NCBI GenBank assembly: GCA_964587205.1
Contig: CAZPKQ010000001.1
Span: 1 to 47,589 of the forward strand
Source of the DNA: an uncultured Candidatus Saccharibacteria bacterium
GTDB taxonomy: Bacteria > Patescibacteriota > Minisyncoccia > Phycocordibacterales > PALSA-1337
Length of the DNA: 47,589 nt
Direction of reading: 5' to 3'
The position numbers and the translations under genes are program-made. Numbering within the stretch: position 1 is the stretch's first letter; every line of letters starts with the position of its first letter. Shown piece by piece: positions 37,304 to 44,720 of the stretch. The notes beneath the pieces were generated by a model. That model saw nothing but the letters and a program-made list of their open reading frames with translations, did no database searches and was not told where the DNA came from.

Positions 37304-37407
37304 ATATTTTATTTAATGATAATGTAACTATAGTATATCACAAGAATGAATTATCAAGTTTTTATTTGAAACTAAGATAAATAGGTTATTTTACTGTACC
37401 AAACATG

Positions 37408-37570
37408 GACCCGAGAGGAGGTGTGTTTTTTATTTTTTTGTGACAACGAGTTATGCGATTGGTGCGTCAGTCTACTAAACATTCAGGCAGAAGATTGCTA
37501 GCATACCAACAACTCGGATGAGTAATACGCAGTTGCACAAAAAAATAAAAAACACACCTCCTCTTGGGTC
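37408..37570. repeat. MITE-like or long-hairpin element with ~35-bp terminal inverted repeats
   Basis: GACCCGAGAGGAGGTGTGTTTTTTATTTTTTTGTG (37408-37442) pairs with CACAAAAAAATAAAAAACACACCTCCTCTTGGGTC (37536-37570). One mismatch. The centre is ~93 nt. Confidence 0.8.
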
Positions 37571-37595
37571 AATCAATAGTATTGCAAAATGTAAG

Positions 37596-39960: not shown

Positions 39961-41286
39961 CTACGACACCCTTACGACATTAGCCCCAATCGCTCTCAAC
40001 CTAGTCTCTAAACTTTCGTATCCACGATCGATAAGATGGATATTTGAAATTGTAAATTTACCTTTTGCAACAAGACAAGCAAGGACGATAGCAAAACCCG
40101 CGCGAATATCATGAGCAGTTAGCTCCACATGTTCAAAATGAGAAAGTGGTGTAGGTCCATTGATCAAGGCCTTATTGCCATCGATAATATTTATACGCGC
40201 ACCCATTTGCACTAGATCATGAGCGTATTTGAAGCGACCTTCGAATATAGTCTCGACTACCGTACTTTCACCTTCACATTGAGTAAGATAGGTCACAAGC
40301 GGTGACTGAAGGTCTGTTGCAAAACCAGGATATTCTTTTGTGACTACATTGAATGGTCGAAAAGCATTGTTATTTTTATTTGAAATTTTGATCGAACCCT
40401 CCTCACCATCTTTACCGATAATCTCAATATCCACACCTGACTTTTTCAACAAATCAATCACTAGATCTAGATGATCGGGGCGACAATCGTCTATATAAAG
40501 TTCTTCGGCCAGCAACGCTCCCAGAAACAAAAAACTACCCGCCTCAATCCTATCTGGTATTGCACGATAAGCAACGCTTGTATTCAATAACTTTCCACCA
40601 TTGCCATTTATGATGATGGTATCCGTACCCAAGCCTTGAATATCGGCCCCATTTTGATTTAACCAATGACCAACATTCTCTATCTCAGGTTCTTTGGCAC
40701 AATTTTTCAATATCGTCTTACCACTTCCCAAGACCGATGCCATCATAAGAGTCTCGGTACCGCCGACCGTTATCTTGGCAAAAGTTATCTCAGTCCCTGT
40801 TAGTCTATCTGCTTCTATATAATATATTTCATTTTCCAATCGAACTTTTGCCCCCATTTTCTTGTAACCATCGATAAAGAGATCGATCGGTCTTGCACCT
40901 ATCACACAACCACCTGGTGCTGGGAATGAGACTTTGCCAAATCTCGCCAACATCGGGCCAGTCAGTACCACCGACGCTCTCATCGATCTTGCTTTGTCTG
41001 GATTGATATCGGTTTTGCCTATCGTACTTGTATCTATATATAGAGTCTTAGTCAATGGATTATTATCCTTCCATTCAATCTTTGCTCCCAAATCCTGCAA
41101 AATTTCATTTAGTGTATGTACATCTTCGGTATTGGGTATGTTATTTAGCTCGACTTTGCCCTGAAATAAAACCGCACCCGCCATTGCTTTCAAAGCAGCG
41201 TTTTTTGCGCCATTTATAGATACTCTACCCTTCAATGTCCTTTGACCTGCCAAGCCGTTAATTAAAAACTTTTCTTTTTTATTCAT
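39961..41286 (-). CDS. murA: UDP-N-acetylglucosamine 1-carboxyvinyltransferase
   Basis: 441 aa with ...RVSINGAKNAALKAMAGAVL... and ...PGGCVIGARPIDLFIDG... Confidence 0.96.
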   Translation of the reverse strand: MNKKEKFLINGLAGQRTLKGRVSINGAKNAALKAMAGAVLFQGKVELNNIPNTEDVHTLNEILQDLGAKIEWKDNNPLTKTLYIDTSTIGKTDINPDKARSMRASVVLTGPMLARFGKVSFPAPGGCVIGARPIDLFIDGYKKMGAKVRLENEIYYIEADRLTGTEITFAKITVGGTETLMMASVLGSGKTILKNCAKEPEIENVGHWLNQNGADIQGLGTDTIIINGNGGKLLNTSVAYRAIPDRIEAGSFLFLGALLAEELYIDDCRPDHLDLVIDLLKKSGVDIEIIGKDGEEGSIKISNKNNNAFRPFNVVTKEYPGFATDLQSPLVTYLTQCEGESTVVETIFEGRFKYAHDLVQMGARINIIDGNKALINGPTPLSHFEHVELTAHDIRAGFAIVLACLVAKGKFTISNIHLIDRGYESLETRLRAIGANVVRVS

Positions 41287-41831
41287 ATATTGAAATTAGT
41301 TATTTCACCTTTCGATAGCAAATAATTTAATTCGTTTGACAAACAAATTTCATCTGCTATACTATAATTACAAACATTGACTTCGAAATCCGAAGTCCCC
41401 GAGATTACCCCGAAAGGGGTTTTCGTTTTATTTATCATGGCATTCACTTGTTTTTTTAATTCCATAAAATCATAATGATCTATGGTGCAAATATTTCTTA
41501 TTAATCTCCTTCTATCAAAAACTCTCAATTGCATCAATAAAACATCATTTTCTTGACCATTAATCAGCATTCTATGTCTAAATTTTTCTGATTTAATTTT
41601 TGTTGTAAGTGGTACCCCGAGAAATATGTCATTAGTAAGCTTCCTTAGAACAATCACTGGTCGACTAAAATCTTTTGATATTGAATGTTGTTCAGACCCT
41701 ATATTCAAACCAATTGAACACCACCACAATTCTCTTTCAGCAAAATTAGCAAGATCGATACGACTATCTAAATCCTTTTTATGAATATTCCATTGATCAA
41801 AATCCTTTTTCATAAATATTAGTTCCTGCAT
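41283..41831 (-). CDS. PemK/MazF-family toxin-like protein with N- and C-terminal extensions
   Basis: ELWWCSIGLNIGSEQ...RPVIVLRKL...LGVPLTTK...VLLMQLRVFDRRRL matches the MazF/PemK core pattern. Start at ATG 41831 or 41813. Its stop TGA overlaps the murA ATG (ATGA). Confidence 0.72.
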   Translation of the reverse strand: MQELIFMKKDFDQWNIHKKDLDSRIDLANFAERELWWCSIGLNIGSEQHSISKDFSRPVIVLRKLTNDIFLGVPLTTKIKSEKFRHRMLINGQENDVLLMQLRVFDRRRLIRNICTIDHYDFMELKKQVNAMINKTKTPFGVISGTSDFEVNVCNYSIADEICLSNELNYLLSKGEITNFNI

Positions 41832-41855
41832 TCTATCTATTTTCCACCTTTTTAA

Positions 41856-41884
41856 CAATACAAAAGGCCCGCGCAGGCGGGCCC
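41856..41884 (-). terminator. Intrinsic terminator after the GC-rich orphan gene
   Basis: The minus strand forms a 7-bp GC stem, GGCCCGC pairing with GCGGGCC, around the loop CTGC, followed by TTTTGTATT. Confidence 0.8.
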
Positions 41885-41904
41885 GTGAGAGGTGGAAAAC
41901 CAAG

Positions 41905-42597
41905 TTAACTGAGTGCCTCAAAGATCTGATTGGGAGTGGGGCGCAGGAACTTGTGAAAAATCTGCACGTTCATCGCTCCACCAATGCCAGAATTCAAGCA
42001 TTGCTTTTGAGCTTGATTCATCTTCATTCGTTCCTCCACCATACCACCGTGGAAGGATTCGAAAAATTGACGCCTAAGCAACCTCTTCGCCTCAGCAATT
42101 GATTGGCCGACGGCATTATCCTCGTCATGTTTCAGATCCGGATTGACTCGACAAGAACAAGCTTTGGCAAAGATAGCGCCAAGATTTCTGGCCACCAAAA
42201 TTGAATCGTTCGGGCACATAAATTTGCCATACCCGTCACACATACCGACGGCAAGACCCTTAAGGAACTCTCCCTGATCGAGAATACATTCATCAGTCGT
42301 CGAGTCAAAGAGTTCACAAAGGAGTCTAGGAATGGCAACAAACGCAAAGCCAAGACGAAATCCAATCTGGTATTGACAATCTCGACCCTCAATAGCACGA
42401 AGTCTTCCAATCTCCGTAAACATCAGCCCAAGATCGATCTCCGGATCAATCAAGAAATCCTGAACCGAGGCCATTAAGGTCTCGAAAGCTAAACCATGAT
42501 TAGGGTTGGAAGAATGATCGGCCAAACATCCCTGAAAGACCTGACTGATCCAACCAAGGCATAGCGCTTCGTGGCTGTTCAAATGACGTCTTTCCAT
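41905..42597 (-). CDS. Hypothetical 230-aa protein, GC-rich orphan
   Basis: ATG at 42597 preceded by AAAGGTGG. It has its own promoter, a structured leader and a terminator. No family recognised. Confidence 0.6.
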   Translation of the reverse strand: MERRHLNSHEALCLGWISQVFQGCLADHSSNPNHGLAFETLMASVQDFLIDPEIDLGLMFTEIGRLRAIEGRDCQYQIGFRLGFAFVAIPRLLCELFDSTTDECILDQGEFLKGLAVGMCDGYGKFMCPNDSILVARNLGAIFAKACSCRVNPDLKHDEDNAVGQSIAEAKRLLRRQFFESFHGGMVEERMKMNQAQKQCLNSGIGGAMNVQIFHKFLRPTPNQIFEALS

Positions 42598-42608
42598 ACC
42601 ACCTTTCT

Positions 42609-42647
42609 GTCCTCTCGGACAACCCTCTCGGGCATGACCTCTCGGTC
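42609..42647 (-). promoter_or_regulatory. Three tandem mini-hairpins with an identical CC-GAGA-GG core in the orphan gene leader
   Basis: In mRNA sense: GACC-GAGA-GGTC (42647-42636), CCC-GAGA-GGG (42632-42623) and GTCC-GAGA-GGAC (42620-42609). The period is 13-14 nt. The last hairpin ends 11 nt before the ATG. Confidence 0.7.
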
Positions 42648-42689
42648 AAGGTTTTTGGGGCAGTCAATGTGACTGTTTGTCCAAAAACG

Positions 42690-42718
42690 ATAATATAGCC
42701 AAATTGACAGCTAGTCAA
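42690..42718 (-). promoter_or_regulatory. Putative promoter of the orphan gene, back-to-back with a putative priA promoter
   Basis: Minus strand has TTGACT (42718-42713), N17, TATTAT (42695-42690). Plus strand has TTGACA at 42704-42709, N17, ATAAAT. Confidence 0.55.
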
Positions 42719-42776
42719 ATTCATTAATAAATGATTTTTATATTTACATAAGGGCAAATCGAGATAAGATAGTGAT

Positions 42777-44720
42777 ATGTTCATCATCACCGTCTTACCT
42801 ATTTCAAAATCAAAACTTGGCGAGGAACTAGTCTACTTCGCTACAACTGAAGTCAAAGTCGGAGCAATACTATCCGTACCGCTCAGGAAAAAAATGATCC
42901 CAGCATTGGTGACAAAAGTCGATCTTGCCGAAGACAAAAAATCCCAAATCCGCAATGCTCCATTTGAAATTAGGAAAATTGACAAAATCAAAGCCTTGGA
43001 CTTTTTCCCGGAATATTTTATACACGGAGCAAAAACGATTTCTGATCTTTATGCCTGCTCGAGCGGTGCGATCATCGATGCACTCGTACCAAAATCGCTT
43101 ATCGAAAATTCTGCCAAAATTGCAAAACCGCTTGCTTCAGAAAATTCCAATCAAAGCAAAACTAAGACTAGAATCTTGGCAGTGCAAGGTGATGATAGTG
43201 ATAGGATAAGCGCCTGGAGAAGTCTTGTAAGACAAGAATTTGCAAATAAAAGATCGATCGTTTTTTATTTGCCGACCATAGAAGAATCAAATCAGCTTTT
43301 TGAGGCTTTGAAAAAAGGTATCGAAGAATATATTTTCGTACTCAATAGTGATCTCACCCCAAAAAAGCTTATTAGTTGTTGGAATAAGATAGCTGAAACA
43401 GAGCATCCAGTAGTTATTATTGCCACCGGCTCATATGCTACATTGCCAAGAAAAGATATAAAGACTGTGATAATAGAAAGAGAAAATGCTCGAGGCTGGA
43501 TTATGCAAAAGCGTCCATATATCGATCTACGACAGTCGATTATCGAACTTGCTACATTAAATAGTCAGACTATTTATCTTGCTGATACAATCTTGAGAAT
43601 AGAAACATTACACAATCTAGAAAATGAAAAATTCGAATATGGCTCACCATTCAAATGGCGATCGGTCTCATCCGCAAGCGACCTAGTCATTGATATGAAA
43701 ACCGACAAAAAATCTGAAGCATCGGTAGAGGAAAAAGACCAGACTCCGATTATTCAAAGAAAAAGCAAGTTCAAAGTTTTGTCTGATAAACTAGTAGAGC
43801 TAATAAAACAAAATATAGAGGAGAATACTCACATGTTCATATTTGCTTTACGCAAAGGACTTTCGCCTCTGACCGCTTGTGACGATTGTGGGACTATCGT
43901 GATGTGCGACAACTGTCAGAGCCCCGTCGTATTGCATCAAAATCCAGAATCGGGTCGAAACTATTTTATGTGTCATCGTTGTGGCGAAAGAAGCAATGCT
44001 GATACCAATTGCAAAAAATGTGAAAGCTGGAGGCTCACCCCTCTTGGTATCGGTATCGATAGAGTCCAAGAAGAGATCAAAAACTTATTTGATAAGATAG
44101 ATATATTCAAAATCGATTCTGAATCGACAAAAACTAATAAAGAAATAAAAGAAAAAATTCAAGCATTCAAAGACAAACCCGGAAGCATATTGCTTGGCAC
44201 CGAACTCGCCATGCAAAATTTCAATGACAAAGTCGATCATGTCGCTATAGTTTCTCTCGATTCTCTATTTAGCTTGCCTGATTTCCGAATTTTGGAAAAA
44301 ATTAATTACAATCTTGTCCGCTTGCGTTATCAAGCGATAAGGACGATCTTGATCCAGACTAGAAGAGCTGATCAAAAGATTTTTGATCTTGGTCCAAAGG
44401 GCAATATCTCTGATTTCTATCGAATGACGATTGACGAAAGGCGTATACTCGATTATCCGCCATTTTCTATTTTGATCAAAATAACAATCGAGGGCAAAAA
44501 GGAGCAAATTGCAAATACCATGGCTGATATAGCAAAATTCCTCGAACCACACAATGTCGACATTTTCCCCGCTTTCACCTCTACGGTCCGTGGCAAATCA
44601 GTCATCCATGGCCTTATCAAGATCGCAAGTCATGCTTGGCCCGATCATGATCTCATTGCAAAAATTCGTACTTTGCCACCAGAGGTTACGATCAAGATCA
44701 ATCCTGAAAGTTTGCTGTAA
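42777..44720 (+). CDS. priA: Primosomal protein N' (PriA)-like, with degenerate Walker A/B motifs
   Basis: 647 aa. The Cys-rich zinc region CDDCG...CDNCQ...CHRCG...CKKCE is intact. No GxGKT/S occurs anywhere. The DEEH position reads EREN. Confidence 0.8.
   Translation: MFIITVLPISKSKLGEELVYFATTEVKVGAILSVPLRKKMIPALVTKVDLAEDKKSQIRNAPFEIRKIDKIKALDFFPEYFIHGAKTISDLYACSSGAIIDALVPKSLIENSAKIAKPLASENSNQSKTKTRILAVQGDDSDRISAWRSLVRQEFANKRSIVFYLPTIEESNQLFEALKKGIEEYIFVLNSDLTPKKLISCWNKIAETEHPVVIIATGSYATLPRKDIKTVIIERENARGWIMQKRPYIDLRQSIIELATLNSQTIYLADTILRIETLHNLENEKFEYGSPFKWRSVSSASDLVIDMKTDKKSEASVEEKDQTPIIQRKSKFKVLSDKLVELIKQNIEENTHMFIFALRKGLSPLTACDDCGTIVMCDNCQSPVVLHQNPESGRNYFMCHRCGERSNADTNCKKCESWRLTPLGIGIDRVQEEIKNLFDKIDIFKIDSESTKTNKEIKEKIQAFKDKPGSILLGTELAMQNFNDKVDHVAIVSLDSLFSLPDFRILEKINYNLVRLRYQAIRTILIQTRRADQKIFDLGPKGNISDFYRMTIDERRILDYPPFSILIKITIEGKKEQIANTMADIAKFLEPHNVDIFPAFTSTVRGKSVIHGLIKIASHAWPDHDLIAKIRTLPPEVTIKINPESLL

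Follow-up and report, generated by a model that had tools for sequence, protein, structure and literature searches.

The 47,589-nucleotide (nt) stretch analysed here, called the window throughout (contig CAZPKQ010000001.1, from an uncultured Candidatus Saccharibacteria bacterium), carries on its minus strand a gene for a 230-amino-acid (aa) orphan protein, whose 5′ leader presents three tandem mini-hairpins capped by GAGA tetraloops next to the ribosome-binding tract. Comparison with related genomes established the RNA structure of this leader, the selection acting on it, its position, and its one-to-one link with a single gene family. Judged by its pattern of sequence change, the hairpin array is no chance repeat: the 5′ leader genuinely folds into this RNA structure, which is under selection, and leaders of this kind are a conserved, undescribed mRNA motif in several families of ultra-small Patescibacteria-type bacteria. 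The most likely role of the leader would be that of a protein-binding switch on translation, and we assign a probability of roughly 0.45 to the reading that it serves as a translational operator to which the encoded protein binds as an oligomer.

A first-pass annotation of the sequence had described three tandem GAGA mini-hairpins with a 13-14-nt period before the ATG, built on a constant octamer whose outer stem bases vary yet stay complementary, and both descriptions hold for the window as written. The octamer CCGAGAGG stands at 42645-42638, 42631-42624, and 42618-42611, with spacings of 14 and 13 nt, and occurs five times in the window versus 0.47 expected, a count that none of 100 shuffles reached. 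A further hairpin at the 5′ end of the leader, hp0, was absent from that annotation. All four leader hairpins appeared in the minimum free energy (MFE) fold (−33.3 kcal/mol, z = −2.8), in which ACCUU:AAGGU also closed the three-hairpin junction and so paired part of the purine tract.

Evidence for folding came from 23 distinct GAGA hairpins from ~13 leader types, chosen by their first three pairs and treated as one alignment. In this set, 92% of the cells were paired, versus 64% in shuffles and 38-57% with the partner slid, and 42 cells had changed on both sides, versus 14 in shuffles, with 0 of 500 shuffles reaching 42. The fourth and fifth pairs, which were not used in selection, were paired in 23/23 and 22/23 hairpins and showed six and four pair types, respectively. 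The loop-closing pair was C-G in 20 of the 23 hairpins and U·G in the other three, while the other stem pairs showed three to six pair types, and the orientation of GAGA relative to the gene was always the same. The internal non-Watson-Crick stem pairs comprised 11 G·U and no A·C, which indicates that the sense strand folds as RNA and argues against both double-stranded DNA palindromes and an antisense transcript.

Homologues of the 230-aa protein were rare, with only four found among 5.8 × 10⁹ proteins, and a profile search of 1.84 × 10⁹ representatives returned nothing beyond the protein's own cluster. All four lie at the same site, between the divergent priA and the downstream murA. The first-pass annotation had allowed that the motif might be unique to this locus or missing upstream of homologues; it was found upstream of every one. 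The flanking genes of the four loci shared 97-98% protein identity, with a synonymous divergence (dS) of 0.09-0.21 and a nonsynonymous divergence (dN) of ~0.013, whereas the orphan open reading frame (ORF) shared 66-68% identity, with a dS of 0.53-0.78 and a dN of ~0.21, which is 13-16 times the dN of priA and murA. Its dN/dS of 0.27-0.45 indicates a genuine coding gene. In line with the earlier description of a Cys-rich orphan divergent from priA, the protein had no Pfam match.

The leader behaved differently from the ORF. Between the window and one close relative (L006), the 57 nt from hairpin 1 to the ATG carried a single substitution, located in a spacer, versus ~8 expected from a flanking dS of 0.13-0.19, and the leader module was invariant where neighbouring synonymous sites had diverged by 30-55%, suggesting that the leader is under strong purifying selection. 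In the same relative, hp0 was replaced by another complementary stem, GCGGUC-ACUCU-GAUCGC.

A second lineage, type B (the window representing type A), was found in another genome of the same genus (G034), whose PriA N-terminus was 47% identical to that of the window and whose leader occupied the same site. This leader reads CCUUC-GAGA-GAAGG, GAUUC-GAGA-GAAUC, GUCC-GAGA-GGAC, and then AGAAAGGUUGGUAUG, with the loops, closing pairs, hairpin 3, and purine tract equal to those of the window. Relative to type A, the CCUUC/GAAGG stem of hairpin 1 represents four fully compensatory pair changes around the same loop, and the GAUUC/GAAUC stem of hairpin 2 represents two compensatory changes and one one-sided change; the type B counterpart of hp0 is ACAACC-UCGU-GGUUGU. 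Across the two lineages, 99.2% of the cells were paired and eight pairs had changed on both sides, versus 34-47% and 0-1 such pairs in slid controls, in a model-guided alignment of a kind that leans towards the model to which it is fitted.

The type B protein (263-269 aa) had no BLASTP similarity to the window's protein, and profile-profile similarity between types A and B was weak (E 0.014 over 117 columns). Type B had seven further members, 65-100% identical, in which the 65-nt leader module was identical or differed by one base, versus 4-12 differing positions in the upstream 63 nt, an ORF dS of 0.31-0.55, and a priA dS of up to 1.7. Some type B pairs had an ORF dS of 0.15 versus a priA dS of 1.47, suggesting that the leader-ORF cassette has been swapped between lineages by recombination. 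The reverse pattern was seen between G034 and L170 (ORF 44% identical, priA 98%), and gene trees disagreed across the type B loci (L165-L176 and L130). A diversity-generating retroelement was rejected as the source of this variation, as the divergence was spread over the whole ORF, including synonymous sites.

To extend the family, a covariance model was built from types A and B and run on 92 genomes of the genus and 400 genomes of the class. It revealed three more leaders in the genus (in G445, G011, and G019), and a protein profile made from five protein types added two more genomes (G026 and G455). In the genus (g1), 7 of 92 genomes carried the protein family, and 7 of 7 had the hairpin-array leader, with one copy per genome. 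The cassettes of G445, G011, G019, G026, and G455 lay elsewhere: four were between murB and secA, and the fifth followed an rluD-like gene, giving three chromosomal sites for leader plus gene (priA|murA, murB|secA, and after the rluD-like gene). In the class scan, six more leaders came to light, all of them in two other families: genus g265 contributed five and genus g276 one; because the scan sampled 400 genomes with strict filters, the true distribution is probably wider. In other species, genera, and families, the array thus also stands before counterparts of the gene that are very distant or cannot be recognised as such, answering the search of related genomes that the first-pass annotation had proposed.

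The leaders of g265 and g276 each precede a 236-303-aa orphan protein. The g265 proteins were 26-62% identical to each other and showed no significant similarity to the genus g1 profile (hhalign E 0.09). One g265 leader reads GUCUCC-GAGA-GGAGAC / AUUCCC-GAGA-GGGAAU / CCUUC-GAGA-GGAG(G/A), with the start codon 7-9 nt on; in g265, the last hairpin uses the purine tract GGAG(G/A) as its own 3′ arm. Altogether, the same architecture was found in at least 12 other leader types, with downstream orphan proteins of 230-303 aa. Each leader has three hairpins (G455 has four), of which the last stops 9-14 nt short of the start codon; a TTGAC(A/T)-N16/17-TAnnnT promoter precedes every related leader, and a strong terminator follows the ORF in every related cassette.

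Within this common plan, some elements varied and others did not. The 33 loops in 11 leader types were all exactly GAGA, whereas in G026 all three loops read CGCAA, closed by U·G, instead of GAGA. The type E leader also closes its loops with U·G, and U·G closures occur in the G019 leader. Linkers between hairpins ranged from 0 to 14 nt across leaders and were invariant within lineage B. GAAAGG was kept in the purine tract of types A-E and G of genus g1, while type F has GGAAAGAAU. A 5′ hairpin was present in all genus g1 leader types, taking the form GGUUUGY-NCGUU-GYAAACC in types C-G. This hairpin was strongly conserved among types C-G (L179, L180, L181, L212, and L213) though their proteins differ, and, from this conservation, it may have a role beyond 5′-end protection.

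Simpler pattern searches added little. Two copies of CCGAGAGG in 400 genomes of the order gave one match, equal to the control, and three copies in 185,579 species genomes gave only GC-rich coding tandem repeats, an uninformative result; GAGAG..GAGAG..GAAAGG in the order occurred at chance level, and a 22-base pattern in viral contigs gave two irrelevant matches. A 20-mer searched in metagenome contigs recovered two real type B loci and one chance match.

The relation of the array to ribosome binding required separate consideration. The Shine-Dalgarno (SD) sequence claimed in the first-pass annotation exists as a purine tract directly before the ATG, though its classical role is uncertain. Among ~31 window genes, an SD-like tract precedes only the orphan gene and the neighbouring MazF-like gene; in the others, a −10-like hexamer lies 5-8 nt ahead of the ATG, and nearly all of them look leaderless and SD-less by this pattern. 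In a complete genome of the same genus (G017; L214/L225), the 16S 3′ end reads ...GUGGAAUAUUUCAAG, without CCUCC, and the sequence after helix 45 reads GGAAUAUUUCAAG, without a CCUCC anti-SD. The SD-less window genes and this 16S tail suggest that the purine tract may not act as a classical SD. The G017 16S gene also has large insertions. In the folds of types A and B, the predicted probability that the purine tract is unpaired was 0.04-0.35, and the ACCUU:AAGGU pairing may be a helix that closes the three-hairpin junction and would thereby hide the ribosome-binding site. In types C-G, the tract was predicted to be largely unpaired; a family-wide helix sequestering the ribosome-binding tract was rejected, as it was predicted only in types A and B.

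Taking these observations together, we infer that a protein binds the array, that this protein is the gene's own product, and that binding represses translation. The mRNA would start ~85 nt before the ATG with a protective 5′ hairpin, followed by three stem-loops that all present the GAGA tetraloop, the last of them directly against the purine-rich ribosome-binding tract. The identical loops would be read by an oligomeric or multi-site RNA-binding protein, most likely the helical product of the gene immediately downstream. The bound protein would keep the array over the ribosome-binding site, in the window lineage also by means of the ACCUU:AAGGU helix, and translation would be switched off once enough product had accumulated. 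As in known autogenous operators, the last hairpin abuts the ribosome-binding site, and array and gene are linked one to one in all seven genomes of the genus. The motif occurs once in each genome and only ever with a single gene family, a pattern that speaks for a protein, probably the gene's own product, as the partner, and not for a metabolite. A single array that moves with its gene likewise fits an autogenous pattern, not a global regulator or a metabolite regulon, and the joint switch of all three G026 loops suggests a multivalent partner able to co-evolve with its target.

Several observations weigh against this autogenous operator. An ACCUU-type closing helix was not predicted in any of types C-G, and the G455 leader has mixed loops (AUGA, GAGA, GAGU, and GAGA). 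The AlphaFold model of the type A protein was unusable, with a predicted local distance difference test (pLDDT) score of 41. The type B model was better (pLDDT 76, predicted template modelling score 0.81), and Foldseek found no neighbour for it in PDB or BFVD. No recognisable RNA-binding domain or fold was detected in the family with Pfam, PADLOC, PHROGs, or Foldseek. Proteins were 26-68% identical within types, with little or no detectable similarity between types, and the constancy of GAGA across three families despite such divergence is awkward for a specific protein-loop contact. As for the proteins themselves, the 230-aa protein had no PADLOC or PHROGs match, a cluster look-up for the family returned no names, and type A is colinear with types B-E through weak shared motifs.

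The leader could instead be a passive structure without any partner, in which the hairpins, very stable with their GNRA caps, would block 5′-end-dependent decay and, by tying up upstream sequence, keep the ribosome-binding tract of a changing, GC-rich ORF equally accessible. Short stable stem-loops behind a 5′ hairpin, as in the genus g1 types, would suit such a role, as would the largely unpaired purine tract predicted in types C-G. GAGA is a GNRA loop, as is GCAA, which is one possible reading of the loop in G026, and the gene, as an outlier among apparently leaderless, SD-less genes, may need a special leader for translation. Yet stability alone would also allow GAAA, GCAA, and GUGA, which is hard to reconcile with 33 of 33 GAGA loops in 11 types, and it would not predict that the three G026 loops changed together or that the linkers, too, are invariant within lineage B. 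A generic stabiliser would also be expected on more than one gene per genome, and we consider a purely passive leader unlikely, if still a serious contender.

A small-molecule or ion riboswitch of the guanidine-II kind, with a ligand in or between the tetraloops altering access to the ribosome-binding site, appears improbable. Known guanidine-II structures depend on loop-loop Watson-Crick pairs, and GAGA has no self-complementary dinucleotide that could form them. The first-pass annotation had noted a likeness to mini-ykkC, and the likeness of layout stands, as mini-ykkC consists of tandem mini-hairpins with covarying stems and conserved, C-G-closed tetraloops by the ribosome-binding site (PMC1950547), and its linkers, like the 0-14-nt linkers here, vary. 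Membership does not follow from this layout: the loops are GAGA and not ACGR, the leaders have three or four hairpins and not two, and the downstream gene is of another class, a single hypervariable soluble protein with no transporter, enzyme, or regulon. The CGCAA variant would, moreover, require a parallel change in ligand chemistry. A search of window positions 41700-42900 against Rfam 15 at E ≤ 10 gave no mini-ykkC match and only sub-threshold chance matches (CRISPR-DR28 on the terminator stem, small nucleolar RNAs, and a long non-coding RNA), and eight related loci gave only tRNAs at gathering scores.

The array might also be an operator for a conserved host factor, such as a global RNA-binding regulator, an RNase, or a ribosomal component, that reads the GAGA loops. 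The loop remains constant across three families while the protein changes beyond recognition, which fits a conserved partner better than a changing one. From a global factor, however, several targets would be expected, whereas one array per genome was found, and the switch to CGCAA in G026 would require the factor to change too; we therefore regard a host factor as a doubtful candidate.

C-GAGA-G is the tetraloop of the sarcin-ricin loop (SRL), a universally conserved part of 23S rRNA, which raises the question of mimicry, with the cassette protein being an SRL-directed toxin, an immunity protein, or a ribosome modulator that binds, or is sensed via, decoy loops. Hairpin 3 (GUCCGAGAGGAC) equals the Escherichia coli SRL core (GUACGAGAGGAC) at 11 of 12 positions, GAGA is closed by C-G in 20 of the 23 hairpins, and conflict genes typically show the fast evolution, sporadic distribution, and autonomous cassette seen here. 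One passage in the literature presents short C-G-closed GAGA hairpins as the assumed minimal target of ribosome-inactivating proteins (PMC9486812). Against mimicry, the bulged-G (E-loop) module is absent, with stems that are plain Watson-Crick apart from G·U; beyond the loop, likeness to the SRL is limited to hairpin 3 of types A and B; and, in contrast to an SRL that does not vary, type E has U·G closures and G026 has CGCAA throughout. Neither a toxin-like nor a nuclease domain was detected with Pfam, PADLOC, or PHROGs. The lineage's own SRL was sought for comparison, and neither the window's assembly nor the 10 kb downstream of 16S in a complete relative had a match to the loop sequence. Mimicry is accordingly very improbable, and it would be just as much of a long shot that a triple SRL decoy provides feedback control or lets the cassette sense attack on that loop, with the protein aimed at the GTPase-associated centre.

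Finally, the array might be a DNA-level element, either three small palindromes bound by a dimeric transcription factor or recombination sites through which cassettes are exchanged. Such an element would fit the location downstream of the −10 box and ahead of the ATG, in which a repressor could work as a roadblock, the precedent that tandem hairpin motifs can be DNA sites (PMC1950547), and the apparent exchange of the ORF between lineages, yet it is hardly credible, because the half-sites differ among the three sites of one leader while staying complementary, the GAGA centre is not palindromic and keeps a constant orientation to the gene, and the G·U bias shows selection on one strand.

In the window, whose host genome assembly comprises 626 kb in 72 contigs and is 93% complete, positions 42718-41865 of the minus strand form one self-contained expression unit of promoter, ~85-nt leader, 230-aa ORF, and terminator (Table 1). 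The promoter named in the first-pass annotation was recovered by the promoter scan, and the orphan ORF has a GC content of 46-48%, versus 29-42% for its flanks. The inverted repeat around the −35 box, TTGAC(A/T)nnnTGTCAA, is kept at related loci, its other arm being TTGACA on the priA-facing strand; from this arrangement, it could represent back-to-back divergent promoters or a shared operator.

Table 1. Features of the leader-orphan cassette and its neighbours in the window.
Feature	Position	Strand	Remarks
Promoter TTGACT-N17-TATTAT	42690..42718	-	10/12 in promoter scan; TTGACT 42718-42713, TATTAT 42695-42690
Inverted repeat TTGACnnnnTGTCAA around −35 box	42700-42718	-	back-to-back with priA side
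5′-proximal hairpin hp0, CAGUCA-CAU-UGACUG	42661..42675	-	in MFE fold
ACCUU tract, complementary to AAGGU of purine tract	42648..42652	-	MFE and centroid folds, types A and B
Hairpin 1, (U)GACC-GAGA-GGUC(A)	42648-42635	-	from sequence
Hairpin 2, (G)CCC-GAGA-GGG(U)	42633-42622	-	from sequence
Hairpin 3, (U)GUCC-GAGA-GGAC(A)	42621-42608	-	abuts purine tract; ends 10 nt before ATG
Purine tract GAAAGGUGG (SD-like), context A-GAAAGGUGG-U-ATG	42599..42607	-	ATG 42597-42595
Orphan ORF, 230 aa, 10 Cys, type A	41905..42597	-	predicted all-helical product
Intrinsic terminator GGGCCCGCCUGCGCGGGCCU, then UUUUG	41865..41884	-	terminator scan: 8 pairs, 7 G-C
PemK/MazF-like gene	41283-41831	-	Pfam PF02452, E 3.6e-10
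priA, divergent	42777..44720	+	

The MazF-like gene downstream is indeed adjacent to the orphan gene, as had been noted, but the adjacency is incidental. The gene is full length in the window, absent from L004 and L006, and reduced to a 65-aa remnant in L007 and to a 94-aa remnant fusing N- and C-terminal parts in G034; since these relatives keep leader and ORF, the MazF-like gene lies outside the unit. Its membership of the unit as part of a type II or III toxin-antitoxin system was rejected, given its absence from L004, L006, L173, and all murB|secA cassettes, and no antitoxin gene was evident. Its presence varies among near-identical strains, and its stop codon overlaps the murA start. Just past the orphan stop codon, UUUUCCACCU (41899-41890) can pair without a mismatch with the SD-like tract of the MazF-like gene, AGGUGGAAAA (41849-41840), with the two lying either side of the terminator, and the ribosome-binding site of the MazF-like gene would therefore be sequestered on read-through transcripts. 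Elsewhere in the window, at 37405-37575 of the plus strand, a long inverted repeat, GACCCGAGAGGAGGUGUGUUUUUU ... AAAAACACACCUCCUCUUGGGUC, encloses ~115 nt; its arm opens with the CCCGAGAGG core, as in hairpin 2, and by its form it may be a small RNA or an element resembling a miniature inverted-repeat transposable element.

With this leader, the few known tandem mini-hairpin leaders gain a cis-acting RNA motif not described before, in a Patescibacteria (candidate phyla radiation)-type lineage with genomes of ~0.6-0.9 Mb in which gene regulation is almost unknown. Conservation is far higher in the RNA than in the protein, so the RNA offers a search handle for rapidly diversifying orphan proteins that sequence searches fail to group together, and such proteins often take part in conflict or host interaction. 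The switch from GAGA to CGCAA in G026 amounts to a natural specificity-swap experiment, and if the partner is the encoded protein, leader and protein would make a compact, portable, and orthogonal RNA-protein control pair.

Among known systems, mini-ykkC/guanidine-II (RF01068) shares the tandem 5′-leader mini-hairpins with covarying stems, a conserved tetraloop with C-G closure, variable linkers, and a last hairpin at the ribosome-binding site. It differs in having two hairpins with ACGR loops, in place of three or four with GAGA (or CGCAA) here, and in preceding genes for SugE/EmrE-type exporters or guanidine metabolism, in place of a Pfam-less 230-303-aa orphan. Membership was rejected, with no ACGR loop, no association with guanidine genes, and no cmscan match at E ≤ 10. 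Type III toxin-antitoxin systems (ToxI/ToxN) are similar in having tandem RNA units upstream of a fast-evolving gene, an autonomous and sporadic cassette, and a possible 3:3 RNA-protein pairing. There, however, near-identical 34-45-nt repeats and a terminator precede the gene for a ToxN/Kid-like β-fold toxin, and the candidate was rejected on account of the 13-25-nt units with unrelated stems, the lack of an internal terminator, the predicted all-helical protein, and the absence of a PADLOC match. A CRISPR or other repeat element was also rejected, the sole CRISPR-like match being the terminator stem and there being one array per genome. The resemblance to the SRL consists of the C-GAGA-G tetraloop and the hairpin 3 core, the other hairpins sharing the loop only.

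Closer in logic are the targets of CsrA/RsmA and ANTAR proteins and lambda boxB, in which the loop carries the recognition sequence while the stems vary and sites are multivalent near or over the ribosome-binding site; boxB, bound by N, is an example of a GNRA-type fold that a protein recognises specifically. The leader differs from these in having no GGA loops, no A1/G4 hexaloops, no regulon, and no antitermination context. A CsrA/RsmA site was rejected on account of GAGA loops without GGA and a single array per genome, and an ANTAR dual hairpin on account of tetra- and pentaloops and the lack of a terminator in the leader. Autogenous operators, such as ribosomal-protein leaders, the RNA-phage coat-protein hairpin, and T4 RegA and gp32, differ in being single sites, often rRNA mimics, for a conserved protein, whereas three or four equal loops and a fast-evolving protein are found here. 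They nevertheless share with the leader a structure at the ribosome-binding site of one gene with which it is co-inherited, and the logic expected of them, in which the product represses its own translation, is the one that we propose for this leader.

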